Origin: a virus | IMG/VR virus record: IMGVR_UViG_3300048905_000128 | Length of the DNA: 64,000 nt | Strand: one strand, 5' to 3' | Shown: one piece after another, positions 1,837 through 40,091 of the stretch | Layout of the letters: the number at the start of each line of letters is the position of its first letter | How positions within the stretch are numbered: the first letter of the stretch is position 1 | Program-made: the position numbers and the translations under genes | Notes under the pieces: model-generated | The model's database searches: none | The model's input: only the letters and a program-made list of their open reading frames with translations | What the model was told of the DNA's origin: nothing

Positions 1837-1838
1837 GA

Positions 1839-2024: not shown

Positions 2025-2026
2025 GG

Positions 2027-16561: not shown

Positions 16562-16822
16562 GCTCGACGATTCCGGCGCGCCTGCTTGAGGACGCGCATC
16601 ACCCACAGCTAGGGTCATCCCTAGACCAACTCTCTCGGTCACCTCTTCCCCTCGGGCGCCAACCATCGGGGTAGAGGTCTGCCCGCTCGTCGGGCATGGG
16701 CGAACCGTATCCCCGATTACATCCACAGCCGGGCAGGCTCGGTCAGCCCGGCGTGTCACCCCCCGACGGTCGGAACAATCGGGGACACCACTCGGCGCGG
16801 CGGCCCTCGACAGCCGCCCCAG

Positions 16823-17230: not shown

Positions 17231-17237
17231 CCCACCG

Positions 17238-17267
17238 TTGACCCCCCTTATATGGGGGGCGTATCGT
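17238..17267 (+). promoter_or_regulatory. candidate sigma70-type promoter (TTGACC, 18 nt, TATCGT)
   Basis: -35 at 17238-17243 and -10 at 17262-17267. In-frame GTGs at 17269 and 17275 suggest a leaderless or near-leaderless mRNA. Confidence 0.4.
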
Positions 17268-17268
17268 C

Positions 17269-25836: not shown

Positions 25837-26040
25837 TCACTCGCTCCTCCTCATGAACCCGAGCCGGATCCGCTTCCCCGACCCGCCGCAGCGCGGGCAC
25901 GGTCTCGATGCGGACTTACTGAGCGGCGACACGAACCGCCCCGCCCCGTCGCATTTGCGACACGGCTTGCGCCAGTAGCGGCGCGCATCCCACAGCCACA
26001 CGACCGCGACAACCACCACGAGCGCGACCAGCAGGGTCAC
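25837..26040 (-). CDS. membrane-anchored DnaJ-type zinc-finger protein (67 aa)
   Basis: N-terminal transmembrane helix plus two CxxCxGxG motifs (CRKCDGAG, CPRCGGSG). GTGA overlap. Confidence 0.6.
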   Translation of the reverse strand: MTLLVALVVVVAVVWLWDARRYWRKPCRKCDGAGRFVSPLSKSASRPCPRCGGSGKRIRLGFMRRSE

Positions 26041-26813
26041 AGCCGACCCCCAACCGCCGCCGCCGCGGAGTCACGCACCTCGGCGAGCCACGGCCACAAC
26101 CCAGCACCCAGCCACAGCGCCGCCGCCGTCATCCCGGCGAGCAGCACGACCTCCACCACGCCTCCGGTGTGGAACCGCAGCGGCCTGGGCAGCCCGACCG
26201 GGTACCAGCGCCGCCCCCGGATCGACAGCGGCCACAACAGCGGCGCCCCCGACTCGGTCAGCGCATCCCCGACGTCGTGCACGAGCATCCCCACCGCGAC
26301 AGCTGTCCCGGCCCAGGCGTGCCCGGCCCCGACCGTCCACCACAACCCGGCCGTCAGCAGCCCGGCCGCGGCCAGGGACGGCGGCCCGGGGATCAGGTGG
26401 TCGATGCCCTTCACGGCGAGGGCCAGGCCGACGAACACCACCGACCACAGCGCCCACGACCCCCACACGGCCACCGCGGCGTTCACGCCGACGCCGAGAG
26501 CGACGGCCGCCGCCCCGGTGTGGGTGAGCGCCCGATGAGTGCCCTCGCCGTGATCGCCGGGCCCGGCCGTCGCCCGGAACACGGCCGCCGACAGCGGCCG
26601 CACCACCCGGGAGGCGAGCCACGACGCCGGACCGAACCGGCGTGTGGCGGTCGACGTCGGGTGGTCGAGGTCGGGCAGCAGGCTGAACCCGGCCGTCAGC
26701 ACCGCGAACACGAGCGCGTCCTCACGGCTGTGCACACCCGCGAGCGCGGGCGCCGCGGACGCGAGCGCCAGGCCCACGAACGCACCCGACGTCGCATGAC
26801 TCACGCCCATCAC
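26037..26813 (-). CDS. membrane-bound metal-dependent hydrolase-like protein (DUF457/YdjM-like)
   Basis: LLPDLDHPTSTATRRFG and HRALTHTG motifs with multiple transmembrane helices. GGAGG SD 8 nt before GTG 26813. Confidence 0.6.
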   Translation of the reverse strand: MMGVSHATSGAFVGLALASAAPALAGVHSREDALVFAVLTAGFSLLPDLDHPTSTATRRFGPASWLASRVVRPLSAAVFRATAGPGDHGEGTHRALTHTGAAAVALGVGVNAAVAVWGSWALWSVVFVGLALAVKGIDHLIPGPPSLAAAGLLTAGLWWTVGAGHAWAGTAVAVGMLVHDVGDALTESGAPLLWPLSIRGRRWYPVGLPRPLRFHTGGVVEVVLLAGMTAAALWLGAGLWPWLAEVRDSAAAAVGGRL

Positions 26814-26955
26814 GTGATCCGCCTCCGCTCGTTCGTTCGCTCGTTCGCCCTCATCGCGCCCCCAATGCGCGCAGGCGTGTGCGGGTGTGCGCGGGCGCTT
26901 GCGCTCTCGCACGCGCGCACGTACGCGCGCGCGCACGGTGGGGTCACGGTGGGGT

Positions 26956-28767
26956 TCATGTCCGCACCCACTTGCCGCGCCCGCTGTTGCGGGCCCGGCC
27001 CGCCTCGGCGAGCTTCCGCAGCGCCCGGTCGACCCGGCCCCGATCCACGTCGAGGGCCTTCGCGATGGCCGTCGGCCCGATCCCGCCCTCGGCGGGGAGC
27101 TGGGCGAGCACCTCGTCCTCGAAGTCCGCCGCGGCGACCGCGAGGGATGGGGCGACCTCGAGCGCAGGCACCGGCCTGTGGTCGACGACCTGGGAGGTGG
27201 AGCCCGACAGGATCCCGGCCGACCCGTGGTCGAGCATGATCGCGCCCGCGTCGACGGCGGCCCGGATCAGCCGCTCCCGCTCACCGTCGGTCAGGTACAC
27301 GCCCTTCGCCACGCGCGGGATGTTGTGCTCGTCGTCGCGGAGCAGCCACGTACCGGCCTGCAACTGCGTGCCGTCCCAGCCCTGCTTCACCGCGGAGCCC
27401 CACAGGATGCCGTTCATGTGCTGGTCGAGGCGGCCCCCGAACACGGCCATCATCTGCGCCCGGAACTCGGTGGACCCGGCATCCTCCTTCGTGCCGTTCT
27501 GCAGCATCACGTAGATCCACACCTCGGCCTTGCGGGCACGCTCGGCGAGCACCGTCAACGGGCCCACGATCTCCGGGCCCAGCGCCCTGACCAGCGACGG
27601 AAGCTCGTCGATCACCAGGAAGATGGGGGTGCCGTCCCACTTCTTGAGCTTCCGTTTGCGCATGTCGCGCTCGCGGTGCTCCACGGCCGCCATCACGCGG
27701 TTGAGCAGCTCACTGGCCTGCCCGGCGGTCGTCGCGACCGGGGCGAGCATCGTCGGCTCCCACTCCCCCAGCGACACCCCGCCCGCCATGTCGACCCCGA
27801 CGACCCCGGCCCGGCCGATCGTCATCCACGCCATGAGCGTGTCGCCCATGACGGACTTCCCGCCGCCGGACTGGGCGCAGATCATCGTGTGGCGGGTCAT
27901 CTTGTGCCCGAGCGGCGCCCGGTCCTCGAGCCTCGCCACGTTGCACAGCTCCGAACGCAGGTCTATCTGCCCGAACGGGATCGGGCCGGTCTTCGGGACC
28001 CCCGGGTGCGGGATGACGCCCTGCCACGGGTTCCGCGGCACGATCCGCACCAGCACCCGCCGCGAAGACGCCGCCTGCGAGATCGTCACCGCCCCCGGTC
28101 GCAGATGCGTGGACAGGGCGGACTCGACCTCCCTCGCGGTCCCGCCGACGCTCTTGACCGTCTGGGCGCGTCGCAGCTCGATGACCAAGTCGGTGACGAG
28201 CCGGTCGCCAGTCGTCAAAGACGGGATCACCCGCGACCCCTCGAAGGCCTTGATCGACGATGCGACATGCGGCCACCGTCGCGCCCACCGCGACGAGCGA
28301 CGCCGCGACCGGAACCGGCGATGCCACCACCACGGCAGCCCGAGCGATGCGACAGTCGCAGCCCACGCGATCCACGCCGGCTGCGACATCCCCGCCCACG
28401 CGATGAACGCCATCCAGCCGCCGCCGACCGCGACGAGCGCCGCCAGGTAGGTGCGTTCGCTGTCGCGGTCGAGCACGCCTTTGCGTCCGGCGTCGATCCG
28501 CTCCGGGACGAACCACGCCAGGGCCCGCTGCAGCCACGGCGACAGCCGGTGCCCGGCGTGTAGCAGCACCGGTGCGACACCGAGTGCGACGAGCGCGACC
28601 ACCGCGGCCGCCCAGGGTGCGACAGCGTGTAGCAGCAGGCCTGCGACGAGGATCCCGGCCGCGACAGCCCACGGGGCCAGCCCGGACCGGTACCGCCACA
28701 GCCGCCGCGACACCCACCGGGCCGCCCGCCAGGTGCGGCGAGCGGTCCGCTTCGTCGACGCCTTCAC
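26956..28767 (-). CDS. FtsK/SpoIIIE-family DNA translocase (TraB-like), N-terminal membrane anchor, C-terminal wHTH
   Basis: 603 aa with Walker A (AQSGGGKSV), Walker B (IFLVIDELP) and N-terminal transmembrane helices. The C-terminus is GIGPTAIAKALDVDRGRVDRALRKLAEAGRA. Confidence 0.85.
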   Translation of the reverse strand: MKASTKRTARRTWRAARWVSRRLWRYRSGLAPWAVAAGILVAGLLLHAVAPWAAAVVALVALGVAPVLLHAGHRLSPWLQRALAWFVPERIDAGRKGVLDRDSERTYLAALVAVGGGWMAFIAWAGMSQPAWIAWAATVASLGLPWWWHRRFRSRRRSSRWARRWPHVASSIKAFEGSRVIPSLTTGDRLVTDLVIELRRAQTVKSVGGTAREVESALSTHLRPGAVTISQAASSRRVLVRIVPRNPWQGVIPHPGVPKTGPIPFGQIDLRSELCNVARLEDRAPLGHKMTRHTMICAQSGGGKSVMGDTLMAWMTIGRAGVVGVDMAGGVSLGEWEPTMLAPVATTAGQASELLNRVMAAVEHRERDMRKRKLKKWDGTPIFLVIDELPSLVRALGPEIVGPLTVLAERARKAEVWIYVMLQNGTKEDAGSTEFRAQMMAVFGGRLDQHMNGILWGSAVKQGWDGTQLQAGTWLLRDDEHNIPRVAKGVYLTDGERERLIRAAVDAGAIMLDHGSAGILSGSTSQVVDHRPVPALEVAPSLAVAAADFEDEVLAQLPAEGGIGPTAIAKALDVDRGRVDRALRKLAEAGRARNSGRGKWVRT

Positions 28768-29633
28768 GCCGTCACCTTCCGGGCCGCCCGCCGGGCGGCC
28801 TGACGGTCACGGTTGTAGCGCCTGCGGGCCTCCTCGACCGTCTCCCCCGGCATCGGCTTCGCCGAGAGCACCCCGGACGTCGTGTCGCGACGTCGCGGTG
28901 TCGCAGGCTTCGCCGGGCGGGCCTGCGCACGCACCGTCGCCGGCGACGTCGCGGCAGCCGCGACACGAGACGCGACCGGCTCAGCCGCGACAACCGGCGT
29001 CGGGGGCGGCTCCGGCCCTGTGGCGGCCGTCGCCTCGGCCTTCCGTGTCGCCTTCCAGCTCTCCCACGCTGCACGAGGGTCATCGGTGAAGGTGTCGATC
29101 GAGTGCCGCCACACCCGCGGCGTCACGAGCGGGAAAGCGAACCACCGCGACAGCCCGAACACCGCCCCGTGCGTGTCCGACGTCCCCCGCGCGGCGAGGA
29201 TGATCGCCTGGCGGCGGCGGGTGTGCATCCCCCACAGCCACGGCGACATCACCGAGAACACGGCGAACATGAATGCGAGCGGTGTCGGCGCCCAATGGTC
29301 GGAGAAATGCCACCACTGCAGCAGTGCCGCCCCGATCGCCAGCCCGTACGACGCGAGACGGCGACGGGCCGCCTGCAGTGTGGCGTTGCGGAGCAGCTCG
29401 TCATGGGCGTGCCACTGCACCGACAGTGACAGCGACTCGAACCCGGCCGACGCGGCGATCGACAGCGCGATACGGGCCCCGAGAGGCCAGCCGCTCGACT
29501 CGGTGATCCCCAGCAGGGCGATCACCTGCCCCGTCATCGCCAGACCGGTGTCGAGCACCAGCGGGACGAGCAGGTGCAGCGTCGGGAGGTGGCGGGCCCA
29601 GTACCCGGGCCGCTCCCCCGTGTCGGCGCTCAT
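28764..29633 (-). CDS. polytopic membrane protein, DUF2637-like (289 aa)
   Basis: ATG 29633 in ATGA overlap. Four hydrophobic helices and a basic C-terminal tail. Adjacency to the FtsK-like gene is as in actinobacterial conjugative elements (from memory). Confidence 0.6.
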   Translation of the reverse strand: MSADTGERPGYWARHLPTLHLLVPLVLDTGLAMTGQVIALLGITESSGWPLGARIALSIAASAGFESLSLSVQWHAHDELLRNATLQAARRRLASYGLAIGAALLQWWHFSDHWAPTPLAFMFAVFSVMSPWLWGMHTRRRQAIILAARGTSDTHGAVFGLSRWFAFPLVTPRVWRHSIDTFTDDPRAAWESWKATRKAEATAATGPEPPPTPVVAAEPVASRVAAAATSPATVRAQARPAKPATPRRRDTTSGVLSAKPMPGETVEEARRRYNRDRQAARRAARKVTA

Positions 29634-29842
29634 GCGACGTTCCCGCGCTGCTCGAGGTTCTCGATCCACGACTGCAGCTGTGCGCGGACGACCTCGGCTG
29701 CGTCGGCGGCCAGCGCGGGCGGCGCGTTCCGGATCGCCGCGGCGAGACGGTCACCGAGCACGCGGATCAGCGCGTCGGGGGTGGTGGCCGCGGCTTCCCG
29801 CGCGGCGAAGAACGCGACGCGGTTGTCCAGGGTCCCAGGCAT
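29630..29842 (-). CDS. hypothetical protein (70 aa)
   Basis: ATG 29842 (MPGTLDNRVAFFAAREAA...) with a GAGAGGA SD. Confidence 0.5.
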   Translation of the reverse strand: MPGTLDNRVAFFAAREAAATTPDALIRVLGDRLAAAIRNAPPALAADAAEVVRAQLQSWIENLEQRGNVA

Positions 29843-29872
29843 TACGAGTCCTCTCGGGGTCGTGCGGGTCGC

Positions 29873-29907
29873 GCGGCAGCCCGGGGGCGCCATCCCAGGG
29901 CTGCCGC
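29873..29907 (-). terminator. GC hairpin
   Basis: GCGGCAGCCC pairs with GGGCTGCCGC. It lies between CCCCTACCCC (29914) and the SD of gene 29842. Confidence 0.45.
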
Positions 29908-29930
29908 GCAGGTGGGGTAGGGGTCGCAGG

Positions 29931-30116
29931 TCAGCCGATCTGTCGGTTGCAGCCGACGCAGTAGGCGGAGGAGAAGAGCAGCCCGGAGTGCACGCACACG
30001 TCGGCGTCGGCGCACTCCGGGTGCCGCTCGACGTGCTTGTCCATCCGCTTGTTCGCGGCCTTCCGATCCCCCGCGCTCACCGTGTTGGGCTGCCAGTGCG
30101 CCCGGTGGTTCGCCAC
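29931..30116 (-). CDS. small zinc-ribbon-like protein (61 aa)
   Basis: AAGGAGA SD 5 nt before GTG 30116. Sequence: VANHRAHWQPNTV...HPECADADVCVHSGLLFSSAYCVGCNRQIG. Confidence 0.5.
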   Translation of the reverse strand: MANHRAHWQPNTVSAGDRKAANKRMDKHVERHPECADADVCVHSGLLFSSAYCVGCNRQIG

Positions 30117-30245
30117 TGCTGTCTCCTTGCGTGTGCGCGCACGCGGTCGCGGGCGTGCGCGCGTTGTGTGATTCGGTCGCCCGCCGGGGCTCCGGGAGGG
30201 GACTCGGAGGGCGGCACCCGGCGGGCGACCGCTGCACGCCACGCT

Positions 30246-30264
30246 ATCCAATGACTGATTGGAT
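30246..30264. promoter_or_regulatory. palindrome ATCCAAT-N5-ATTGGAT (operator-like), with an extra ATCCAA half-site at 30272
   Basis: Lies in the divergent intergenic region upstream of the XRE cassette. TTGACT is at 30285-30290. Confidence 0.5.
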
Positions 30265-30342
30265 CGTCTACCATCCAAGGGCACGTTGACTCGATCGGCG
30301 CAGCGCCGGACACTCGAACCGCTGACCGCGGGAAGGGGACCC

Positions 30343-30561
30343 ATGAAGATCACGACGCTGCGCACCATGGCCGGAACGAACAAGTGCCCGGACATCGAGA
30401 GCTGTCCTGCTGTGCTCACCACCGACACCACCGACGACCTGTTCGTCGTCACGAGAGTGGTCGACGACCCGGCCGTACTCGCCGAGTTCGCACACCTGGT
30501 CGGCCCAGGCGAGCAGCTCGGCTACGTGCCGCGCGAGCTGCTCAAGGACCTGGAGGTCTGA
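30343..30561 (+). CDS. hypothetical small protein (72 aa)
   Basis: ATG 30343 (MKITTLRTMAGTNKCPDIESCPAVLTTDTTDDLFVVTRVVDDP...) with a GGAAGGGGA SD. Confidence 0.55.
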   Translation: MKITTLRTMAGTNKCPDIESCPAVLTTDTTDDLFVVTRVVDDPAVLAEFAHLVGPGEQLGYVPRELLKDLEV

Positions 30562-30563
30562 GC

Positions 30564-31127
30564 ATGGGCGACTTCCTGGAGCCCCACGAGGTCGGGCCCG
30601 TCATCCGCTCCTACCTGCGCGGGGAGGGCGACGTCGCGTGGCGGATCGAGCAGCTCCCTGCCTACGCGGTCACCTCCGACGGAGACGACTTCCGGCGTTG
30701 GCAGGCTGGGGAGCTCGAACCGACGTGGGAGCGCAAGCAGCTCAACTTCGATGTCCTCGCCCAGCGTGCGGCCAACGGGATCCGCTCGGAGCGGGTGCGG
30801 ATCTTCACCCCCGAGCTGACCGAGTACGAGCGGTACGCCTGCGAATGGGGCTACGCGCTGAATGGCCCGGCGGGCGAGGACATCCGCGTCCTGCATCGCG
30901 GCGAGCACAGGATCCCGCCGCTCCTCGGCTTCGACTACTGGCTCCTCAACGACACGGCAGTGATCCGGATGCACTACGACGAGGTCGGCCGGTGGTGCGG
31001 CGGCGAGTTCGCGCCCGAGCTCCTCGACGTCTGCCGCCGCGAGCGGGCCGCGCTGTGGGCGGCAGCCGAGCCCTTCGACACCTGGTATGCCCGCCACCCT
31101 GAGCTGCAGAGACGACTGGCAGCCTGA
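30564..31127 (+). CDS. DUF6879-like protein (187 aa)
   Basis: ATG 30564 with a GGAGG SD. MGDFLEPHEV...YWLLNDTAVIRMHYDEVGRW. The family assignment is from memory. Confidence 0.6.
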   Translation: MGDFLEPHEVGPVIRSYLRGEGDVAWRIEQLPAYAVTSDGDDFRRWQAGELEPTWERKQLNFDVLAQRAANGIRSERVRIFTPELTEYERYACEWGYALNGPAGEDIRVLHRGEHRIPPLLGFDYWLLNDTAVIRMHYDEVGRWCGGEFAPELLDVCRRERAALWAAAEPFDTWYARHPELQRRLAA

Positions 31128-31132
31128 TCGAC

Positions 31133-31987
31133 ATGACGGACAGTGCGTTTCCGGAGCGGCCCCCGCACAAGCTGGGGCCGCTCCTCCGCGCTGCCCGCCG
31201 AATCGCCGGCCTGTCGCAGAGCGCCGTGGCGAAGTCGACGAGCCTCCCCCAGTCGTCGGTGTCCCGCATGGAGCAGGACCCGCCGGGCAGCGTCCCGACA
31301 CCGAAGCAGGCAGTCGAGCTGGCGGACCTCTACCGGCTCCCCCACGAGTGGAGGGACCAACTGGTGCAGCTCGCCGAAGATCACAAAGAGCAGCGCGAGG
31401 AGCATCGATTCGTCGTCGTCCGCGGCCGCAACGTGCTGCACGTGCAGCGACGATTCCGTCGCCTCGAAGAGTCCGTGCAACGGATGCGGTCGTACTCGTC
31501 CGGGGTCGTGCTCGGTCAGCTGCAGTCACCGCGGTACGCGGCAGCCATCTTCGGCCAGCCCGCCGACTCCGAGGTCGTGCGCGAGCGTCTTGCCCGCGGA
31601 GTGCAGTCGGCAGCCAACAGCGGCCGCCGCTACGAGGTCGTGATGACCGAAGGGACCGCGTACCCGGGTCTGGGATCCGCCGAGGTGATGGTCGAGCAGT
31701 TCGAGCACCTGATCGAGGTGAGCCGTCTCCCCCACGTTGACCTGCGATGGATCGGCCGCGGCACGGTGCTCGACTCCCCGTCGTCGGTCCCCGGTTTCAA
31801 CATCTATGACGACACCGCGGTGGTCCTCAGCCAGGTCGATGGCGCTGCCACCCTCGACGACCCGGACGACATACTCCGCTACGTCGCCGAGTTTGATCGA
31901 CTCTGGGGTGCCGCCGCGGCTGGTGCCGAGGCGCGCGACGCGCTCGCCGAGGTCTCCGGCTGGTACTCCCGCTGGGCCGCCCAGTGA
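31133..31987 (+). CDS. XRE HTH regulator with DUF5753-like C-terminal domain (284 aa)
   Basis: HTH segment LGPLLRAARRIAGLSQSAVAKSTSLPQSSVSRMEQ, then a long C-terminal domain as in WhiJ/Scr1-type regulators (from memory). Confidence 0.75.
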   Translation: MTDSAFPERPPHKLGPLLRAARRIAGLSQSAVAKSTSLPQSSVSRMEQDPPGSVPTPKQAVELADLYRLPHEWRDQLVQLAEDHKEQREEHRFVVVRGRNVLHVQRRFRRLEESVQRMRSYSSGVVLGQLQSPRYAAAIFGQPADSEVVRERLARGVQSAANSGRRYEVVMTEGTAYPGLGSAEVMVEQFEHLIEVSRLPHVDLRWIGRGTVLDSPSSVPGFNIYDDTAVVLSQVDGAATLDDPDDILRYVAEFDRLWGAAAAGAEARDALAEVSGWYSRWAAQ

Positions 31988-32163
31988 GGCGCACCCGGAC
32001 CGCCGGATGCGAGAGCACCGGGCCTCGTCGTCGATCCCGCTCGGTCACGGGTTAAATCCCGCACGGGACGACACGTATTCGACCCCGGAATAGGTGACGG
32101 GTGTTCTGCGGTCTCTCCCCGTACTCTGCGAGGGCCCTACCCGTGCCCCGGAAGGTTCTCGCC

Positions 32164-32526
32164 GTGCCCCGTCTCCTCCCCCCACCCACCGGTCACCCGA
32201 CGCCCGAGACGTCTGAGCTGATCGCCCGGATCTACGCGCTCGCCGATGCCCCGTACGAGGACGGGGAGGACCGGCTGACGGCTATCCGGGACCTGCACCA
32301 CCTGTTCGATGCGGCGTCGGCGGCATGGGAGGTGGCCGTCGCCCGGGCGGCTGGTGAGGTGGAGACGGGTGCGACGCTGCAGGACATCGCGGACGTGTGC
32401 GGCATGGATTACGGGACGATCCGGGACCGCGCCGAGAAGGGGCGCGAGCGGGTCGGTGGCCGGGAGCGCGCACGGCTCGAAGCGGGGATGAAGGCGAGAC
32501 GGAGCCGGGGGCCCCGTAAGTCGTGA
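32164..32526 (+). CDS. HTH-containing protein (120 aa)
   Basis: GGAAGG SD 8 nt before GTG 32164. HTH-like segment ATLQDIADVCGMDYGTIRDRAEKG. Confidence 0.55.
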   Translation: MPRLLPPPTGHPTPETSELIARIYALADAPYEDGEDRLTAIRDLHHLFDAASAAWEVAVARAAGEVETGATLQDIADVCGMDYGTIRDRAEKGRERVGGRERARLEAGMKARRSRGPRKS

Positions 32527-32783
32527 CGCCCCGCCACTCCCCCGCCGCCCGCTGAGATCGATTCTCCCGATTCCCGCGCCCGCGAGCACGGGCGGCCCCG
32601 ACTGGCGCGTCCTCGTGGCGCTCAGCCCCTCGGAATGGCCATGCGGCCCCCGGGCCGGGCGTCGGGAACCGGCCCGGGAGCGGTGTGACGTGTGGGCAGC
32701 CCGCTACCCGACCGCACCCCGCCAAGAGGCCGCACGCGGGTAGCCAGTGAGTGGCCGACCGGCTGCCACCCTGCCGCACACCA

Positions 32784-32892
32784 GCGGCCAACAGGCGGCC
32801 AACATGCGGGCAACGGGCGGCACGGTGGTGGCCGACAGACGGCCAGTGTGCCGCGTGTCGGCCCGTCATGGATGGGACACGTGCCGCGTGTC
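32784..32892. repeat. phased short repeats upstream of parA (candidate centromere/operator)
   Basis: Four tandem 11-bp units at 32784-32827: GCGGCCAACAG, GCGGCCAACAT, GCGGGCAACGG, GCGGCACGGTG. GTGCCGCGTGTC occurs at 32848 and 32881, 33 bp apart. Confidence 0.6.
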
Positions 32893-32987
32893 TGTCGCCA
32901 ACCGGTGGGGGAGTGGTGGTGTACTTTCCGCGCGCAACCGGCCCACCTGCCACCCGCACCCCACAAGCCCCCCAGGAGCTCCCCGCC

Positions 32988-33893
32988 ATGATCGAGCGCA
33001 CCGTGTCCTTCATCAACGGGAAGGGTGGCGTCGGGAAGACGTCGCTCACCGCGAACCTCGGTGGGCTGATCGCCGCCGCCGGGTATCGGGTCCTGCTGTG
33101 CGATCTCGACCGCCAGGGAAACCTGGCCCGCGACCTCGGCATCAAAAATGACCCCAGAAATGATCTAGGTCGGTCGATGTTCGTCGCCGCCACCACCGGG
33201 GCCCCACTCGCACCCGTGGAGAACGTGCGACCGAACCTCGACGTCATCCCCGGCGGGAAGGTCATCGGCGAGATGGCGGGCGCGCTCTACTCCCGGGCCA
33301 TCCGCGGCGAGAGCGTCGACACAGCCGTCGAGCAGGCCCTCGCACCGCTCGCCGGGAACTACGACCTCATCCTGTTGGACTGCCCGCCGGGGGAGGAGAC
33401 GGTGCAGCGCATGGCGTTGACCACGTCGGAGTACGTCGTCATCCCCACCAAGAGCGACGCCGCATCCCTCGACGGGCTCGTCGAGGTCTCCGAGCTGTTC
33501 GCCGCCGTCCGCCAGTCGAGCAACCCGTACGTGCAGCTCCTCGGCGTGGTGCTGTTCGGGACCGGGGTGACGTCGAAGCGGATCGCCGCCGACACCCGCA
33601 AAGCGGTGGCGCGGGACCTGGGGAACCCCGACCTCGTGTTCGACGCCCGGATCCGGCACGTCGAGGCGGCCGCCGTGAACACCCGCGACGTCGGCCGTCT
33701 CGTCCACGAAGTCGAGGCCGACCTGCCCGCCGCGAAGGCGGCCCGGCTCGCGCAGCTGCGAGCCGGGCGGCACCGGGCCGACGACGCCGGGCCCCGGCTC
33801 GCCGCATCGGCCGCCGGGCTGGCCGCCGACTATGCGGCGCTCGCCCAGGAGTTCACCGCCCGTCTCGCCGAGCGCGTCGAGGTGGCGCCATGA
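32988..33893 (+). CDS. parA: ParA-family partition ATPase (301 aa)
   Basis: Deviant Walker A FINGKGGVGKTS, plus LLDCPPG. AGGAG SD before ATG 32988. Confidence 0.9.
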   Translation: MIERTVSFINGKGGVGKTSLTANLGGLIAAAGYRVLLCDLDRQGNLARDLGIKNDPRNDLGRSMFVAATTGAPLAPVENVRPNLDVIPGGKVIGEMAGALYSRAIRGESVDTAVEQALAPLAGNYDLILLDCPPGEETVQRMALTTSEYVVIPTKSDAASLDGLVEVSELFAAVRQSSNPYVQLLGVVLFGTGVTSKRIAADTRKAVARDLGNPDLVFDARIRHVEAAAVNTRDVGRLVHEVEADLPAAKAARLAQLRAGRHRADDAGPRLAASAAGLAADYAALAQEFTARLAERVEVAP

Positions 33894-34411
33894 CGCAGGA
33901 CCCCCGCGACCTGTCCGCGATGACGTCCCCGCCACCCGCCCGGGCGGCCGGGCTCGCACTCCCGCCGAGGCGGCAGACAGCGGCGCCCGCCCCCGAACGG
34001 GAACCGGTGGGGGAGGAGCCCGAGAAGCGGGCCCGCCCGCCGAAACGCAAGCCCGCCGAGAAACCCGCAGGGCGCACGAAGCTGCAGTACACCGCCTACT
34101 TCCCGCTCCCCGTCGTCGAAGCCATCGAGCGCGACCTCGCAGGCCGGTCATGGTCGGAGTGGTTCCTCGACGCCTTCCGCGCCCACCACCACGAGCTCGA
34201 CGACCGCTTCGACAAGGGGGTGCCGGGGGACGACTCCGGGCTCCCCGCCCGCCCTCGCGGCGCACGGAAGGCCGTCGACAGGCCCACACCCAAGCAGCTC
34301 CGTCTGACGGCCGAGGAGATCGCCGTCCTCGAGTCCAAGCGGGAGAAGGTCGGCAGCCCCAACCGGTCCGAGTTTCTCACTGTGCTCGCGGAGCTCCACC
34401 TGGCGAGGTGA
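33890..34411 (+). CDS. partition partner, tandem ribbon-helix-helix (ParG-like) protein
   Basis: ATGA overlap with the parA stop. Basic Pro-rich N-terminus. Two RHH-like units: YTAYFPLPVVEAIERDLAGRSWSEWFLDAF and LRLTAEEIAVLESKREKVGSPNRSEFLTVLAELHL. Confidence 0.6.
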   Translation: MTQDPRDLSAMTSPPPARAAGLALPPRRQTAAPAPEREPVGEEPEKRARPPKRKPAEKPAGRTKLQYTAYFPLPVVEAIERDLAGRSWSEWFLDAFRAHHHELDDRFDKGVPGDDSGLPARPRGARKAVDRPTPKQLRLTAEEIAVLESKREKVGSPNRSEFLTVLAELHLAR

Positions 34412-34509
34412 CGCCCGTCCTCGTCGTCTACCGGTAACGACGATTCCACGTCACAACGATGTTGGTTGTGGGAGCACCACCCGACCCCTACCCCCGAGAG
34501 AGGCCCCTC

Positions 34510-35133
34510 GTGTCCCAGCACACCCACCGCCCCGACCCTGCGACACCCGCCCCGGCCCAGCCTCGCGGCCAGAACTGGGTTCCGCCACAGCCGCAGCCGG
34601 TCCCGGCGCAGGCCCAGCACGCCTACACGGCGCCGACCCGCGTCCAGCACCCGACGAACACCCCCGTCGAGCTGCCCGCGCCCGCGAAGAAGTCGGCCCG
34701 CCGCTTCGTCCTGCCGCTCGTCACGTTCGTGCTCGGCCTGCTGATCGGGCTCGTCGCCCACGGCGGAGGATCCAGCACCCCCACCTCGTCGGCGGCGTCC
34801 CCGACCACGCAGGCCGCAGCCCCGGCAGCCGCAGCCCCGGCAGCCCCGGCAGCCGCGGCCCCGGCGGCGGCGCCCGCCCAGCCGGCCGGGCCGCAGACCT
34901 CGTTCTCGGATGGCACCTACACCGTGCCGGACGAGATCGCGCCCGGCACGTACAGCGCCGACGGATCGAAGGGCACCCTCGGGTCCTGCTACTGGGCGCG
35001 GGAGAAGGACACGAGCGGCGACATGGGGGCGATCATCGCCAACGGGAACGCCGCCGGCCCCGTCACCGTGACGATCAAGGCCAGCGACAAGGCGTTCGAG
35101 ACGTCGGGCGGCTGCACCTGGACGAAGAAGTAG
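34510..35133 (+). CDS. membrane-anchored secreted-domain protein (207 aa), moron candidate
   Basis: CCCCTACCCCCGAGAGAGG lies before GTG 34510. It has a transmembrane helix (FVLPLVTFVLGLLIGLV), an Ala/Pro linker and a C-terminal domain with two Cys (GTYTVPDEIAPGTYSADG...CYWAR...GGCTW). Confidence 0.65.
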   Translation: MSQHTHRPDPATPAPAQPRGQNWVPPQPQPVPAQAQHAYTAPTRVQHPTNTPVELPAPAKKSARRFVLPLVTFVLGLLIGLVAHGGGSSTPTSSAASPTTQAAAPAAAAPAAPAAAAPAAAPAQPAGPQTSFSDGTYTVPDEIAPGTYSADGSKGTLGSCYWAREKDTSGDMGAIIANGNAAGPVTVTIKASDKAFETSGGCTWTKK

Positions 35134-35147
35134 CCCCGGACACGACG

Positions 35148-35191
35148 AAACGGCCCCGGCCACCCGCGAAAGCAGGTGGCCGGGGCCGTTT
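35148..35191. terminator. bidirectional terminator
   Basis: AAACGGCCCCGGCCACC, a 10-nt loop, GGTGGCCGGGGCCGTTT: a 17-bp perfect stem flanked by A and T runs. Confidence 0.75.
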
Positions 35192-35204
35192 CATGTTCGG
35201 ATGG

Positions 35205-36125
35205 TCAGCGCGACAGCGCGATCACCGAGGCGTTCACCTCGGCCGTCGGGTCGCATCGGCCCTCGACGGTGACCGCGACACAGCCGTCGAGCACCACGAC
35301 GCCGTGGATCAGGTTCCGCGGCGACCCGGGGATGTTCACCTCGCCGTTCGGGAGTACGACGCCGTGCTCGTCGAGCTGGCAGACCCGGAAGTCGGCGGTA
35401 CCGCCGTCGGGGCCGTACGCCATCCCGAACTTCACCCAGCAGGCGCGCAGGGCCGCGGACTGGGGTCCGGCCTCGGCGGCGGTGATGAGCCGCCGGAACG
35501 TGCCGTCGGGGCGGACGGTGATCGAAACGTCGGACACGGGGTCCTCCTCGGACGGGGCCGCCGCGGCGGCCGGGGAGCTGGTGGGGGAGCCGGTGACGGC
35601 GGCCATGAACTCGGGCCACGGGAACCCCGGCCCGGGGTCGGTGTGGGTGGACTGGTGCCACGTCTCGGAGACGTCGACGTGCCCGCAGATCCCGTGCCCG
35701 CCCTCGTGGAGCTCCGGGACGCCGATCCGGACGGCCGGGATCGCGAACCGGGCACACAGCTCGGCAGTGCGCCCGGCGGCCCGGACGACGGCGGGCCACA
35801 CGGCGGGGGAGAGCCACTGCTCCCGCGTGTAGGTGGCCTCCCCGCACACCTCGATGCCGATGCTGTGCTGGTTGGGCGGCGCATGCCAGGCGATGTGCGC
35901 GTCGGGGACGCAGTGCTGCTCCCCGGCGACGTCGACGACGTAGTGGGCGGACCCACGCGCCTCAGCCGTGTCGAAGTAGTGGGCCGTCGAGGCGGCCTGT
36001 CCTGCAGCGGACGCCTCCGGATAGCCCAGATCCGGGCAGGTCGCGTGGATGACGACCCGGGTCGGCATCAGGTTGCCCGGCCCGTCGTCGTGGACGGCCT
36101 GCAGAGTGACCGGCGGTTCCGCCAC
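35205..36125 (-). CDS. endolysin, N-acetylmuramoyl-L-alanine amidase (Amidase_2/PGRP-like) plus C-terminal domain
   Basis: GTG 36125 after GGGGA. Motifs VVIHATC, HYVVD, IAWHAPPNQHSIGIEVCG and HVDVS...HTDPG. Confidence 0.85.
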   Translation of the reverse strand: MAEPPVTLQAVHDDGPGNLMPTRVVIHATCPDLGYPEASAAGQAASTAHYFDTAEARGSAHYVVDVAGEQHCVPDAHIAWHAPPNQHSIGIEVCGEATYTREQWLSPAVWPAVVRAAGRTAELCARFAIPAVRIGVPELHEGGHGICGHVDVSETWHQSTHTDPGPGFPWPEFMAAVTGSPTSSPAAAAAPSEEDPVSDVSITVRPDGTFRRLITAAEAGPQSAALRACWVKFGMAYGPDGGTADFRVCQLDEHGVVLPNGEVNIPGSPRNLIHGVVVLDGCVAVTVEGRCDPTAEVNASVIALSR

Positions 36126-36138
36126 GGCGTCCCCTCTC

Positions 36139-39100
36139 TCAGATGGTGGTGATCGGTGTCGCGGCCCGGTAGAGGCCGCGGGCGTACGGGCGTCCGGCCC
36201 GGGGGAGACCGGTCGCGTAGGGCTGGCCTGCGCGCAGAGCACCGACCGGGCCCGGGCCGACCCCGAACGGGGCCGCCGAATCCCGCGCGGCCGCCACATC
36301 GGTAGCGGTCCGTGTGACCGCGTGGATCCGGGTGGCCGTGTCGAGGGCTGCGGCCTGGTCGACGACCGCCCGACCCCGCTGCGACGGGGCCCTCACCGCG
36401 ACATCGGTTGCGGCCGCGACATCCGCGGCGGTAAAGGCCCTCGTCGAGGTGGGCCCCGCCTGGTCGGCTGCGGGGGCCGCATCGGAGGCGGTGCGGGACA
36501 CCACCAGGTGACGGAGCACCGTGTCCGCTGCCGTCGCGGCATCGGCGATCAGCCGCGACAGCGACACCGCGGCCGTGGTGACATCGGAGGCCGGTGCGAC
36601 ATCCGATGCAAACCGGGGGAGCCCCGCCGGTACGAACACGCTGTCGAATGCCGGGGCCGAATCCTGGGCGGTCCGCGACCGTGACAGCGGGCTGCGGGTG
36701 GCGGCCGGTGTCGCCGAGGCCGAGTCGGTGACGTCGCGGCTGGTCGAGAGGTTCGCCCGGGTGGCGACGTCGACCGCTACGGCGACGTCCTGCGCCGTGT
36801 GTTGGAGCTGCACGGCCCGGCCCGCGACGTCGAGCGCCGGGGCCGAATCGGCGCTGCCCCGGGTGGGGGACAGCGCAGCCCGGGACGCCACGTCGACTGC
36901 AGCTGCGACATCCACGGCGGTGCGGCCGACACCGTCCGGGGCTCGGGTCGCCCCGTCGAGCGCCGCCGCGGTGTCGGCGACGGTCCGCCCGATCGAGGCG
37001 GCCGCCGTCGCCGCATCGACCGCGGCGGCCTGGTCGTCGGCGGTCCGGGCCCCGAGCTCGGGGGGGCGCCCGGCCTGATCCGTTGCCGCCGCGGTGTCGG
37101 CGGCCTGCCGGTCGACGGTGACCTGCCCGGCCGCGGTGTCGACGGCCGGGGCGTGGTCGACGACGAACTGGCCGCCCGCCGCTGACGTCCCCGCCGTGTC
37201 CACGGCGGGCGCCGAGTCGGCGGCCGACCGGGATCTCGTCGTTGCTGCTCGTCCCGCCGAGTCCACGGCCGGGGCGGAGTCGCCTGCCTGGCGGGATGCC
37301 ACCGTGCTCCGGGCCGCGCTGTCTGTCGCTGGCGCGGTGTCGGTGACGGTGCGGGACAGCCGGACAGCCGGTGTAGCACCGTCGACCGCAGGGGCGGTGT
37401 CCGTGGTGCTCCGTAGCGGCGACATCGTGGCCCGTGCCGCGACGTCGACGGCCGCCGCGACATCGGATGCTGTCGTAGCGCCGCCGAGCTGGTCGGCCGC
37501 CGAGTCCACGGCCGGGGCGGAGTCTGTCGCAGTGCGGGACCATGTCGCGCCACCCCGGTTTGCGACATCGGTCGCAGCCGCGGTGTCACCGGCCGTGCGG
37601 GCGGCCGAGAACGGGGCCCGGCCCGCCGAGTCGGTCGCGGCGGCGGTGTCCGTTGCGACCCGGGCGGGGGTCAGAGCAGACCGGGTGGCCGAGTCGGTCG
37701 CGGCCGCGGTGTCCCCGCCGGTTCGGGAGAAGATCGAGCCTGCACGGGCGGCGGTATCCGTCGCCGGCGCGAGGTCACCACCGGTGCGGCTGACCGCCAG
37801 TGCCGTCCGGCTGGCTGTGTCGGTAGCCGCGGCGGTGTCGGCGGCCGTCCTAGACCACGTGTCCGCCGAGCGTGTGGCGCTGTCGGTCGCCGCAGCGGTG
37901 TCGGCCCCGGTCCGGGTGACGAGCAGGGCCGCCCGGGTGGCCGTGTCGGCGGCTGGGGCCGTGTCGGTCGCGGTCCGGGCCCGGGTGATCGTCGAGCGGG
38001 TCGCGGTGTCCGCCGCCGGGGCCGAGTCGGTCGCGCCGATCGTGCTGGCCTGGGCGCCCCGCACCACCGCGTCGCCGGCCGGGGCCGAGTCCGATGCGGT
38101 GCGGATGGACGAGGTGGCCGCCCGTGAGGCCGCATCGGTGGCGGCCGCCGAGTCGACGGGGGAGCGGCCCGCCGTGGTCGTGCGGGCTACGGAGTCCGTC
38201 GCGGCCGCCGTGTCGGCGCCCGACCGGGACTTGAGTACCGCTCCGTGGGTAGCGGAGTCGCTGGCCGGGGCCGAGTCCGACGCGGTCGCCAAATGCGACC
38301 CCGACGTGCCGAGCAGCGCGTTCGTGACGAGGCCGCCGATGATGGCGTGTCCGGCGTCGGTCGGGTGATAGTCCGACGTCCAGTCGGTGGTTCCGGGGCC
38401 GCCGGTGCCGGACATCCACGTCTCGGCGTCGATGACCAGCAGGTTTCCGTCGGTTGCCGCGTAGCTCCTGATGGCGGCGGCGTACGCCGCCCACGTCGGG
38501 CTGGCCGTCGCGGCGGTCGGGGACACGTTGTGCGCGATGAACAGGGCGATCGACGGCACCTTCGTGAGGGCGCGCGCCCATCCGACCAGGGTGGTCAGGT
38601 AGCCGATGTACGCGGCCGTCGTGGTGTTCGCCGACCAGTCGTTGAGCCCCAGCTCGATGAGCACGAGGTCGGGGCTGAGGGCATCCCACGTGGCCGGGAG
38701 CGTGTTCGACCCGACCGCGTCGAAGCCGCTCGCATACTGCTGGGCGGTGATGCCGACGCGGGCCCCGTCGTAGAGCGTGATCCCGCTGGTGGCGTCGCCG
38801 TCGAAGACGACGAGGCCGCCGACGTACGCGTTCTGCGCTGCGTTCGTGGCGACCTGCACGGTGTGGGACCCGGAGGCGCCGAGGGTGATGGTCGTCGGCG
38901 TCCAGGTGGGCGCACCGCCGTTGTCGGCGGTCACGGTGACCGGGGAGCCGCCGTCGACGGAGTAGGTGAACTGGGAGGCGCCGCTGTAGGCGCCGTACCA
39001 GAGCTGCGCCGAGGTGCCGGTGACCGTCCACGTGAGGGTGGCGGTGGTGCCCAGTAGTCGAGTGTTGAAGCCGAACGGTCCGGACCAGAAGTCCGTATTG

Positions 39101-39564
39101 CTGCTGCCAGTTTCGGCGATCCCGGTTGTGCCCCAAGGGGAATCGGGGCCATACACCTGGTACTTCGCCGGGATGGCGCCGACGCCGCCCGCGGCCAGGC
39201 CCAGCCGTGCCCGGATCGCCGCGACCGTGAGGCTCGCCCACCGGTTGGCCCGGACGGACGCCCCCTGCCCTTCCCCGACGGAGTCGCCGATGACAAGCAG
39301 CCGGGCCCGACCCGTCCCTACCTGGGCCGCCGAGAGCGCCGTGTTCCATGCGGTCAGCGGTCCACTGGCGGGCACAGCCCGGTCGCCCGCTGTGTCCGTC
39401 GCCCCGGCCGTGTCCGCGGCCGACCGGGCACGGGTCGCCACACTGCGGGTCGCGGTGTCGGTGGCCGGGGCCGAATCCGAGGCGGACAGATTCGCCTGGA
39501 CCTGCGAGGCCACCACGGGCGCGGCCCGCAGGCGGCGGGGGATGCTGCGGCCGAGGATCGCCAC
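36139..39564 (-). CDS. 1141-aa minor tail-like protein: SGNH/GDSL hydrolase domain plus about 32 tandem 21-aa repeats
   Basis: GDS block LLVIGDSVGEGQG, GLNDW block and DYHPTDAGH (DxxH) block. From about aa 427 to 1105 the protein is a run of units such as RTGADTAAATDSATRSADTWS. Confidence 0.8.
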   Translation of the reverse strand: MAILGRSIPRRLRAAPVVASQVQANLSASDSAPATDTATRSVATRARSAADTAGATDTAGDRAVPASGPLTAWNTALSAAQVGTGRARLLVIGDSVGEGQGASVRANRWASLTVAAIRARLGLAAGGVGAIPAKYQVYGPDSPWGTTGIAETGSSNTDFWSGPFGFNTRLLGTTATLTWTVTGTSAQLWYGAYSGASQFTYSVDGGSPVTVTADNGGAPTWTPTTITLGASGSHTVQVATNAAQNAYVGGLVVFDGDATSGITLYDGARVGITAQQYASGFDAVGSNTLPATWDALSPDLVLIELGLNDWSANTTTAAYIGYLTTLVGWARALTKVPSIALFIAHNVSPTAATASPTWAAYAAAIRSYAATDGNLLVIDAETWMSGTGGPGTTDWTSDYHPTDAGHAIIGGLVTNALLGTSGSHLATASDSAPASDSATHGAVLKSRSGADTAAATDSVARTTTAGRSPVDSAAATDAASRAATSSIRTASDSAPAGDAVVRGAQASTIGATDSAPAADTATRSTITRARTATDTAPAADTATRAALLVTRTGADTAAATDSATRSADTWSRTAADTAAATDTASRTALAVSRTGGDLAPATDTAARAGSIFSRTGGDTAAATDSATRSALTPARVATDTAAATDSAGRAPFSAARTAGDTAAATDVANRGGATWSRTATDSAPAVDSAADQLGGATTASDVAAAVDVAARATMSPLRSTTDTAPAVDGATPAVRLSRTVTDTAPATDSAARSTVASRQAGDSAPAVDSAGRAATTRSRSAADSAPAVDTAGTSAAGGQFVVDHAPAVDTAAGQVTVDRQAADTAAATDQAGRPPELGARTADDQAAAVDAATAAASIGRTVADTAAALDGATRAPDGVGRTAVDVAAAVDVASRAALSPTRGSADSAPALDVAGRAVQLQHTAQDVAVAVDVATRANLSTSRDVTDSASATPAATRSPLSRSRTAQDSAPAFDSVFVPAGLPRFASDVAPASDVTTAAVSLSRLIADAATAADTVLRHLVVSRTASDAAPAADQAGPTSTRAFTAADVAAATDVAVRAPSQRGRAVVDQAAALDTATRIHAVTRTATDVAAARDSAAPFGVGPGPVGALRAGQPYATGLPRAGRPYARGLYRAATPITTI
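36250..38286 (-). repeat. in-frame degenerate 63-bp (21-aa) tandem repeat array
   Basis: Consensus R-T-x-x-D-T/S-A-A/P-A-x-D-x-A-x-R-x5; two further units at the N-terminus (aa 27-62). Confidence 0.8.
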
Positions 39565-39593
39565 CGAATGACCCCCCTCCTACTGTCGGCGGG

Positions 39594-40091
39594 TCATTCG
39601 TCGTAGACGATGTAGCAGTTCGCGGATACCGCGGTGGCGGTCGTCATCCGGATGCGCAGCACCCGCGTGGGCGGGACCACGAACTCGCGTCCGAGGGACC
39701 ACTCGTAGTCGTACTGCGACACCCCGATCGGGGCGATCCACTCGTCGCCGGTGCGGGTCGCGGTGATCGAGCCCTCCGCGGTCGAGGTGTAGCCGGTCCC
39801 GGACGTCGACAGGGTCACCCCGGAGGCCGGGGTGGTCTCACCGGCGCTGTAGGGCTGCACACCGGCGGCGACGTGCGCGGTCACGGTCGCCGCGACGGTG
39901 CCGGTCTCGAGCAGCTCGCACGAGACGACGGCGGTCGGGGCGGACGAGAACCGCACGCCCCACCGCACGACCCGCATCGCGCGGGTCGAGTGGAGGACCT
40001 GCAGCATCGTCTTGATCGAGGTGCCGGTCGTGACCGGTGTGCGGGCCGCCGTCGTCGGCATCGCGCTGTTCCACACGACGAACTGAGTCAT
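39594..40091 (-). CDS. minor structural protein (165 aa), paralog of 50668..51129
   Basis: AGGAGA SD before ATG 40091. The C-terminus SLGREFVVPPTRVLRIRMTTATAVSANCYIVYDE parallels PLGREPRGVGGSGNRIGLRVTTATGSTPNARAYIEIEE. Confidence 0.65.
   Translation of the reverse strand: MTQFVVWNSAMPTTAARTPVTTGTSIKTMLQVLHSTRAMRVVRWGVRFSSAPTAVVSCELLETGTVAATVTAHVAAGVQPYSAGETTPASGVTLSTSGTGYTSTAEGSITATRTGDEWIAPIGVSQYDYEWSLGREFVVPPTRVLRIRMTTATAVSANCYIVYDE

Follow-up and report, generated by a model that had tools for sequence, protein, structure and literature searches.

A type Ib-like parA cassette with a predicted single-chain tandem ribbon-helix-helix partner and an 11-bp repeat array on a candidate actinobacterial phage-plasmid

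Described partition systems and the parA gene

The characterised type Ib partition system pCXC100 of Leifsonia xyli, a member of the Actinomycetota, employs a ParB protein composed of a flexible 65-aa tail and a ribbon-helix-helix (RHH) fold in dimeric form; its binding sites upstream of parA are 9-bp direct repeats, nine in number and weakly conserved (PMC3074162). A locus comparable to this system is found in IMG/VR virus record IMGVR_UViG_3300048905_000128, a stretch of 64,000 nt referred to here as the window, in which a parA gene and an overlapping gene for a 173-aa partner protein (32988–34411) are preceded by an array of 11-bp repeats (32696–32959). The locus is likely to be a type Ib-like active partition and autoregulation cassette, the most likely role of which is to stabilise a low-copy circular plasmid form of the prophage. 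Both type Ib partition and phage-plasmids are already known as kinds of system, while the large family of single-chain tandem-RHH partners, the long 11-bp array with its ‘GC’ core and the presence of such a cassette in a 90-kb actinophage are new. Full-text literature searches on tandem-RHH partition proteins found nothing.

The likeness to pCXC100 covers both genes and the DNA in front of them. A small ParA without a helix-turn-helix (HTH) domain is paired in each case with a partner harboring an N-terminus of about 65 flexible residues and a C-terminal RHH fold, and contiguous, weak, non-palindromic direct repeats lie upstream of parA, doubling as the operator in pCXC100 (PMC3074162). Homologues of the pCXC100 ParB come from Arthrobacter and Rhodococcus (PMC3074162), two of the genera which, along with Gordonia and Cryobacterium, contain the plasmids encoding the closest relatives of the window ParA, at 46–48% identity. 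The pCXC100 ParB, on the other hand, is a homodimer with one RHH per chain, whereas the window partner fuses two unlike units, and the nine units of 9 bp there contrast with about 24 units of 11 bp in the window. Furthermore, a profile search of PDB sequences with the partner, at E-values up to 10, returned no match, which covers the pCXC100 ParB structure if it is in the PDB copy searched.

The ParF/ParG/parH system of TP228 and the delta/omega system of pSM19035 likewise combine a Walker-type ParA, an RHH binder with an ATPase-stimulating tail and short degenerate upstream repeats (PMC3074162, PMC3130281). ParG and omega differ from the window partner in being homodimeric, in belonging to Gram-negative or Firmicutes hosts and in residing on plasmids rather than phages. 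The parH site is made up of 4-bp boxes with 4-bp spacers, and the omega sites of 7-bp heptads. In the type II system of R1, the parC centromere consists of 11-bp iterons, each bound by one RHH dimer, which flank the promoter and double as its operator (PMC2241845). An RHH binder and 11-bp direct iterons are therefore common to R1 and the window, however R1 relies on the actin-like ParM motor in place of a Walker ParA, its ParR is homodimeric, and its well-conserved iterons form two sets of five with 39 bp between them, as opposed to a single run of about 24 degenerate units. All named type Ib and type II centromere binders structurally characterised in the sources cited here are homodimeric RHH proteins.

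The parA gene (32988–33893, + strand) encodes a 301-aa ParA/Soj-type ATPase beginning with MIERTVSFINGKGGVGKT and carrying the deviant Walker A motif KGGVGKT at residues 11–17, in agreement with the KGGxxK[ST] pattern of type Ib enzymes. Its ATPase domain starts at residue 4, leaving no N-terminal HTH domain, which again is a type Ib-like feature. Pfam matches are to AAA_31 (8e-32) as well as CbiA and ParA, PHROG 164 (‘ParA-like partition protein’) is matched at 2.5e-39, and the relatives in the PDB are ParA, Soj and delta. The protein is longer than classic type Ib ParAs on account of a C-terminal extension of about 55 aa. The ATG at 32988 is agreed upon by the Logan and JGI gene calls and by the N-termini of homologues, with a Shine-Dalgarno sequence, AGGAG (32974–32978, + strand), 9 nt ahead of it. 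A longer parA open reading frame (ORF) of 380 aa (32751–33893), which would span the repeats, was ruled out by the homologue starts, both gene callers and the AGGAG ribosome binding site. The stop codon of parA overlaps the start of the partner gene (33890–34411) as ATGA at 33890–33893. The original prediction of a ParA with KGGVGKT that is ATGA-coupled to a 173-aa protein is thus borne out by the ORFs, Pfam and PHROG 164.

The partner protein and its predicted fold

The 173-aa partner (33890–34411, + strand) is divided into a tail and two structural units, all encoded on the same strand. Residues 1–63 (33890–34078) hold the motif M-T-x-x-x-R-D-L-S-A-L, a disordered Pro/Ala-rich linker and, at the end, the basic patch KRARPPKRKPAEKPAGRTK. 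RHH unit 1 (residues 64–107, 34079–34210) consists of a beta strand (64–72), helices 73–82 and 88–99 and a further short helix, with a predicted local distance difference test score (pLDDT) of 86–96. RHH unit 2 (residues 132–172, 34283–34405) contains strand 132–140, with the invariant L-R-L-T, followed by helices 141–154 and 159–172 at pLDDT 88–95. This layout stems from an AlphaFold2 model built on a 45-sequence alignment, in which pLDDT remains below 60 over residues 1–60 and exceeds 90 in the two beta-alpha-alpha elements, while a model of the domain only reached a predicted template modelling (TM) score of 0.71. A basic, disordered N-terminus and two RHH-like units had been proposed from the letters alone, and the model shows the disorder and both units.

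The fold finds its counterpart in TraY of the F plasmid relaxosome. Foldseek searches of the PDB placed TraY chains (E, F and G) as the top 9 matches of the first model and the top 11 of the domain-only model, the best having TM scores of 0.61/0.66 and a root-mean-square deviation of 3.2 Å, with probabilities of up to 1.00. TraY is the only consistent PDB fold match, VirC2 following weakly at rank 10 of the first model with TM scores of 0.22–0.28. F TraY is a monomer that holds a whole RHH dimer fold, and three copies sit side by side on DNA as a train (PMC12117103). Taken together, the two beta-alpha-alpha units and the TraY match indicate a single-chain pseudo-dimer, unlike ParG, omega and the pCXC100 ParB, and for the C-terminal 110 residues the model predicts, with high confidence, an entire RHH pseudo-dimer within one chain. 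The partner thereby presents the ATGA coupling, the RHH fold and the disordered residues 1–63 of a type Ib centromere binder, but as a single-chain rather than a homodimeric variant, with two non-identical units where ParG, omega and the pCXC100 ParB have one per chain. Of the suggestion that it is a ParG or type Ib-style binder, the type Ib likeness stands and the strict likeness to ParG gives way to that with TraY. Type Ia ParABS systems, defined by an HTH and the ParB N-terminal (cytidine triphosphatase, CTPase) domain and by a parS that is not restricted to the vicinity of the promoter, are a poor fit, given the RHH fold and the lack of any ParB or HTH match.

At the sequence level the partner itself has no match in Pfam, PHROG or NCBIfam, including any ParB or HTH family, and a search for internal duplication detected no similarity between its two RHH units. 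A tblastn search against 50,697 phage records and a plasmid collection gave no match, and a scan of IMG/VR for the partner gave none. Its relatives are nevertheless numerous; an indexed search retrieved 10 homologues with the single sequence and 41 with a profile, and an exhaustive profile search 792 clusters (50% identity) at E ≤1e-3, 213 of them at ≤1e-10. The sole named homologue is a ‘ribbon-helix-helix CopG family protein’ from Pseudonocardia adelaidensis. Scanned singly, 38 of 45 family members match Pfam RHH_1, with a best E-value of 2.8e-6 and match positions on the protein not recorded. As this large family has no Pfam or NCBIfam model of its own, recognising it would improve the annotation of plasmids and phages of the Actinomycetota, a group with antibiotic producers among its members (Streptomyces and Amycolatopsis, for example).

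Conservation within the family is concentrated in the two strands and at the very N-terminus. V69-Y70 in strand 1 and L137-R138-L139-T140 in strand 2 are invariant, and for R6, D7, L8, S9 and A10 conservation is 90% or higher, up to invariance (alignments A1 and A2). By analogy with the tails of ParG and omega, the N-terminal tail is proposed to contact ParA (PMC3074162).

The upstream 11-bp array and its recurrence

Iterated short repeats upstream of parA, as expected of a type Ib system, are present in the form of about 24 contiguous, degenerate 11-bp units (32696–32959, + strand) in one register, resembling a centromere or operator and ending 29 nt before the parA ATG. The core is G-Y-N-G-C-C, with ‘GC’ at unit positions 4–5. 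The four best-conserved units, GCGGCCAACAG, GCGGCCAACAT, GCGGGCAACGG and GCGGCACGGTG (32784–32827, + strand), are evident in the sequence and to Tandem Repeats Finder, which reports a period-11 array at 32784–32821 with 3.5 copies and 81% matches. A repeat search identified two exact copies of the 12-mer GTGCCGCGTGTC (32848–32859 and 32881–32892, + strand); being 33 bp apart, they lie three array units from each other in the register of the array. An imperfect palindrome, GACACGTGCCGCGTGTC (32876–32892, + strand), extends the second copy. The four tandem units and the 12-mer pair had both been named in the original prediction and are confirmed, as is their helical phasing, although they are not two separate features of four and two units but parts of one array.

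Statistical support for the periodicity is strong and specific. In the 320 nt upstream of parA, autocorrelation at lags 11, 22 and 33 gives z = 7.3, 5.0 and 5.7, respectively, against shuffles, with nothing at lags 10 and 12. Across the 64-kb window, a 240-nt sliding window has its lag-11 maximum at 32734–32973 (0.504 against a mean of 0.282, z 6.2), and the lag-22 and lag-33 maxima coincide with it. ‘GC’ occurs in one phase in 17 of 25 units, whereas 500 dinucleotide shuffles averaged 7.5 and never exceeded 11; expressed as the fraction of units with phased ‘GC’, period 11 yields 0.66 and periods 8–10, 12 and 13 at most 0.29. An artefact of coding periodicity was ruled out: the repeats lie between genes, their signal is absent at lags 10 and 12, and their period of 11 is not divisible by 3. 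A search of the window and of the off-window pieces L025, L028, L039 and L040 revealed no second lag-11 array.

The arrangement recurs beyond the window. Among the loci fetched for comparison (identified by L numbers), all seven that hold both genes (L006, L007, L010, L014, L019, L022 and L024) show the 4-nt overlap of parA and partner gene. Upstream of parA, lags 11, 22 and 33 rank highest in L014, L019, L024 and L007, while L009 has lags 22 and 33 in front and lag 11 in fourth place. The phased dinucleotide is again ‘GC’, often ‘GCA’, present in 24 of 25 units in L014, 14 of 25 in both L019 and L007 and 11 of 25 in L022 (all p ≤0.002), and the locus-wide lag-11 maximum falls just upstream of parA in L006, L010, L014, L017, L019 and L024. 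The three-part architecture of ATGA-coupled parA, tandem-RHH partner and array is seen on plasmid-like as well as phage-like contigs. L017 is phage-like, with a tail-fibre-like gene immediately upstream of parA, whereas L024 and L019 are plasmid-like or resemble integrative and conjugative elements (ICEs), with an integrase, a Fic/VbhA pair and a second ParA. As phased arrays precede parA in such differing loci, the array appears to travel with the gene pair whatever the surrounding element.

Two plasmid-borne relatives connect the family with pCXC100-type type Ib systems of actinobacteria. On a Rhodococcus plasmid, ParA overlaps a 129-aa partner with an N-terminal motif resembling that of the family (‘RKLSGL’) and a single RHH, which aligns to RHH unit 1 of the family (hhalign E 5e-5), and on a Paenarthrobacter plasmid a 231-aa ORF, absent from the PLSDB gene table, has the tandem layout.

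The original prediction had likened the repeats to a parS site or operator. Their position upstream, helical phasing and retention in relatives, as for a type Ib centromere or operator, are consistent with this, and we infer such a function from these features. A candidate actinobacterial −10 element, TACTTT (TANNNT; 32922–32927, + strand), a weak call read from the sequence, lies inside the last array units. It is the sole −10 candidate, a scan for promoters with an E. coli-type consensus having found none, and the array may overlap the promoter.

A scheme can be inferred for how the partner recognises DNA, in what stoichiometry, and what its N-terminal motif does. One partner monomer would bind each 11-bp unit and, at the ‘GC’ core, insert a beta-ribbon of two strands into the major groove; the ribbon would be formed by strand 64–72 paired with strand 132–140, the latter carrying the invariant R138 and T140. 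Because the units are one helical turn apart, monomers would be placed head-to-tail on one face of the DNA, and their assembly along the array may be cooperative, in the manner of the TraY train and of ParR on the 11-bp iterons of R1 parC. Such a filament would display about 20 flexible N-terminal tails with the conserved RDLSAL motif, which may recruit nucleoid-bound ParA-ATP and stimulate its ATPase, and this recruitment and stimulation is proposed to pull sister copies apart. The same complex of partner and DNA would cover the par promoter and repress the operon.

If the binder is indeed an intrinsically asymmetric pseudo-dimer, its filament on direct repeats would be polar and unidirectional, which is impossible for a homodimeric binder. 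A fused, asymmetric RHH protein acting with ParA would then constitute a new way to build a partition complex, with one monomer per helical turn and a defined filament polarity, and the system would lend itself well to studies of the coupling between complex geometry and ParA.

Several observations temper the assignment as a partition cassette. The Foldseek E-values of the partner are weak (0.009–0.3), its RHH assignment rests on the AlphaFold2 topology and the Pfam matches of homologues, as it has no Pfam match itself, and the array units are very degenerate, with a phased core of only 2–3 nt.

With regard to the array, the repeats may alternatively be a transcriptional operator, with the partner an RHH repressor of a ParA-family ATPase that has a non-segregation role; this ATPase could position sites of phage replication or assembly, or interfere with the host ParA/Soj. 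RHH proteins are classically repressors, the array extends to the candidate −10 element and the region of the ribosome binding site, and ParA/MinD ATPases position many kinds of cargo. About 24 phased sites over 260 bp, however, far exceed the needs of an operator and are centromere-like in number (nine in pCXC100, ten in R1, about 100 bp for parH of ParG), a near-invariant peptide on a disordered tail is a hallmark of ParA-stimulating centromere binders, and the same cassette occurs on plasmid-like contigs that contain no phage genes. A purely regulatory role is consequently regarded as very improbable.

The fold of the partner raises another alternative, that of a transfer module akin to VirC1/VirC2, in which the ATPase and the RHH protein on the array would position DNA at a translocase for cell-to-cell spread rather than partition it. 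The gene virC2 lies downstream of that for the ParA-like ATPase VirC1, and the N-terminal half of VirC2 is disordered. These Par-like proteins were co-opted for T-DNA transfer (PMC8406263), providing a precedent, and the only solved single-chain RHH proteins matched by the partner are conjugation accessory factors, namely TraY and, weakly, VirC2. The translocase could be an FtsK/SpoIIIE-like protein of 603 aa (26956–28767, − strand; Pfam PF01580, E 1e-5), encoded 4 kb upstream of parA, which could be a TraB-like double-stranded DNA translocase for Streptomyces-style intermycelial spread. In relatives it could equally be a coupling protein of a type IV secretion system (T4SS), genes for which lie near the parA and partner genes in L007 and L010, further plasmid- or ICE-like contexts. 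A YdjM-like membrane protein gene adjoins the FtsK/SpoIIIE-like gene (block 26037–28767, − strand), for which the defence-system scanner PADLOC gave only a weak mad8 match.

A transfer function is nonetheless considered improbable. TraY shares with the partner the complete RHH dimer fold in a single polypeptide and binds adjacent sites as a train (PMC12117103), but TraY and VirC2 serve relaxosome assembly or T-DNA transfer at oriT or overdrive with one to three sites (PMC12117103, PMC8406263), show no sequence similarity to the partner and lack its conserved N-terminal peptide and long phased array upstream of its own operon; the structural match to VirC2 is moreover poor. The Pfam VirC1 match of ParA, at 16 bits and E 0.007, falls well short of the threshold, AAA_31 scoring 111 bits, and neither a relaxase nor a T4SS gene turned up in the scanned ORFs of the window, in the genes called on the fetched contigs or in the flanking loci. 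In addition, the position of the array, upstream of parA rather than next to a nic or border site, is that of type Ib and type II centromeres, and the nearest ParA relatives are annotated plasmid ParAs, which in three of the records listed lie within about 330 bp of coordinate 1.

The carrier element

Temperate phages with a ParA-type cassette and a centromere of short direct repeats are represented by Cluster A mycobacteriophages such as RedRock, P1 and N15. Their binders are larger, HTH-type ParB or SopB proteins. In Cluster A, the parABS cassette is located centrally, downstream of the virion genes, where it replaces the integration cassette, and the cassette of the window is colinear with it (PMC7157519). 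The Cluster A genes are flanked on both sides by parS-L and parS-R, with eight 8-bp repeats each, and the RedRock ParB binds DNA (PMC7157519). The parABS phages of this cluster are without any integrase (PMC7157519), whereas the window element has a tyrosine recombinase elsewhere, and no sequence relationship exists between their partners, or those of P1 and N15, and that of the window by tblastn against the 50,697 phage records. The parallel drawn in the original prediction with Cluster A, P1 and N15 consequently applies to genome position in Cluster A but not to the binder, an RHH protein in place of HTH-type ParB or SopB.

The window has a G+C content of 71.6% and phage-like gene content throughout. 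The carrier, a phage of about 90 kb with a high-GC actinobacterial host, is long-tailed, judging from its tail-tube and tape-measure genes. Early and replication genes at 1–30000 include those for RecT, an SNF2 helicase, an O-like initiator and many small ORFs, while 35205–64000 (− strand) encodes an Amidase_2 endolysin, a holin, a 1141-aa tail-fibre-like protein, tape-measure, tail-tube and SU10-type capsid proteins; portal and terminase genes are also on the element, beside those for capsid, tail, holin and amidase. The parA and partner genes lie between these two blocks, flanked by lysis/tail genes and an HTH regulator. A virion/lysis module, a replication initiator and a partition cassette are hence united on one replicon, as in a phage-plasmid. 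A megablast search of 28000–40000 against the 50,697 phage records gave no match, and the capsid, the sole virion protein searched against the phage database, gave only a weak match to Leptospira phages.

Contigs from Logan and JGI that carry the genes are all 99.98–100% identical to the window. One of these, SRR35925767_26943 (67,103 nt), runs, in the orientation of the window, from window position 29898 to 6653, a circular permutation that implies a circular map of about 90,347 bp, and a second contig of 86,748 nt spans window coordinates 111 to 86,858. No phage-host junctions or host flanks were present on any fetched contig. An N15-like telomere at 29871–29909 was ruled out, since only a hairpin with a 16-bp stem, between convergent genes, and no long telomere-like palindrome is present there. 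The hairpin has 16-nt arms with 94% complementarity and a 7-nt loop, and three independent assemblies start inside it (window positions 29871, 29883 and 29898), probably as a result of the assembler breaking at the palindrome.

Further indications come from pAmyja1 (NZ_CP008954.1), a circular 92,539-bp plasmid of Amycolatopsis japonica and the only relative of the virion proteins in the plasmid database, with identities of 65% for the capsid, 64% for the portal, 52% for the tube and 46% for the tape measure. Though deposited as ‘non-mobilizable’, it is a complete tailed-phage genome with terminase, portal, capsid, tube, tape measure, GH25 lysozyme and tyrosine recombinase, and from this gene content it looks like an unrecognised phage-plasmid related to the window element. 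Full-text literature searches on pAmyja1 found nothing.

The scanned ORFs of the window and the genes called on the fetched contigs include no integrase. Extension in IMG/VR, however, revealed a tyrosine recombinase on the same element, some 11 kb past the window's right end (about 75–76 kb on the circle). It belongs to PF00589, is named XerC by JGI, was called at 243 aa and is probably about 320 aa long (L039, 3–431; L040, 1462–2432). Its C-terminal catalytic domain, HPHRLRHTAAT...LGH...MRYL, contains the full signature R...HxLRHT...GH...Y, and the enzyme may be an integrase or, alternatively, a resolvase of the Cre or Xer type. In L040 the N-terminal part lies in a different frame, reflecting a frameshift or a sequencing error. 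Neighbouring genes encode an HNH endonuclease, ParB-nuclease-like and DpdA-like proteins, QueC/QueD/QueE/FolE (7-deazaguanine) and terminase.

The recombinase is among the findings that speak against stable extrachromosomal maintenance, as its presence means that the prophage might integrate and the cassette serve the excised or replicating form only. The circular map is equally compatible with replicating or packaged phage DNA, and about 3 kb of the inferred circle (approximately 77.4–80.5 kb) falls outside the sequenced pieces read. A 132,501-nt contig also carries the gene, beyond the contigs read, and a 101-kb variant contig diverges left of the window. When searched, pAmyja1 was without a homologue of the window ParA, partner or recombinase, and it therefore supports the lifestyle of the phage lineage and not the function of the cassette.

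Accordingly, the cassette may serve a transient episome, the prophage integrating through the tyrosine recombinase while ParA and partner act on the excised or replicating circle, as Soj does in some ICEs, or at establishment. The full catalytic signature of the recombinase on the same circle, the circular map, equally expected of replicating or packaged phage DNA in a metagenome, and the integrase 4.5 kb from the parA and partner genes in the family locus L024 are in keeping with such a role. In opposition to it, the recombinase is Xer-sized (243 to about 320 aa) with no arm-binding domain seen, is located beside HNH and terminase genes rather than centrally, more like P1 cre than a phage int, and appears frameshifted in one contig; the parA and partner genes occupy the central ‘integration-cassette’ slot, and phage-host junctions are lacking on the fetched contigs. 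This limited role is judged rather unlikely, and maintenance of the element as an episome is narrowly favoured. The claim of extrachromosomal maintenance in the original prediction is thus partly supported by the circular permutation, the lack of host flanks, the O-like initiator and pAmyja1, and qualified by the recombinase and the ambiguity of the circular map. Its suggested check of the assembly for an episome returned the circularly permuted contig and no phage-host junctions, with the said 3 kb of the circle outside the pieces read.

Combining these strands, it can be put forward only tentatively that a ParA with a monomeric tandem-RHH binder on a long, one-face 11-bp array forms a distinct Walker-type partition class, common on plasmids and phages of the Actinomycetota (about 800 clusters), which here maintains a P1-like phage-plasmid of about 90 kb, with the Xer-sized recombinase as a Cre-like dimer resolvase or cyclisation enzyme. 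The element is a candidate for a phage-plasmid lineage in high-GC soil actinobacteria beyond the well-studied Cluster A mycobacteriophages, and compact stabilisation cassettes of this kind are potentially usable in actinobacterial vectors.

Neighbouring genes and further observations

The O-like replication initiator (13702–14961, − strand) is followed by two HTH/winged-HTH proteins. The nearby region at about 15800–17250 has no clear coding frame and a lower G+C content (0.687 over 16001–18000), making it a candidate replication origin, and no iterons were found within it. Just upstream of the parA and partner genes, a DUF6879 protein and an HTH_31-DUF5753 regulator are encoded at 30564–31987 (+ strand). 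The same pair also occurs in the unrelated, plasmid-like L007 (7685–9080), a few kb from the parA and partner genes, and may be a linked regulatory or toxin-antitoxin-like module. A PADLOC scan for defence systems gave nothing meaningful, and a reading of the locus as a defence system was dropped.

Directly downstream of the partner gene and on the same strand, a 207-aa protein (34510–35133, + strand) combines a hydrophobic segment with an Rv1352-family domain and probably represents a ‘moron’, either secreted or in the membrane. In the 1141-aa tail-fibre-like protein (36139–39564, − strand), a GDSL-lipase domain is accompanied by Ala/Thr/Asp-rich quasi-repeats (DTAAATD...) that extend over hundreds of residues; the phage-like locus L017 encodes, at 88–3354 and directly before parA, a similar protein of LamG type that is likewise rich in repeats. 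Contigs of the same sample series (L029, 10683–14402, against L027 and L028) match the window at 100% identity over tens of kb and diverge abruptly left of window position 143, where a dATP/dGTP pyrophosphohydrolase block is swapped for a DUF1643 block, indicating that mosaic phage variants co-exist in the samples.

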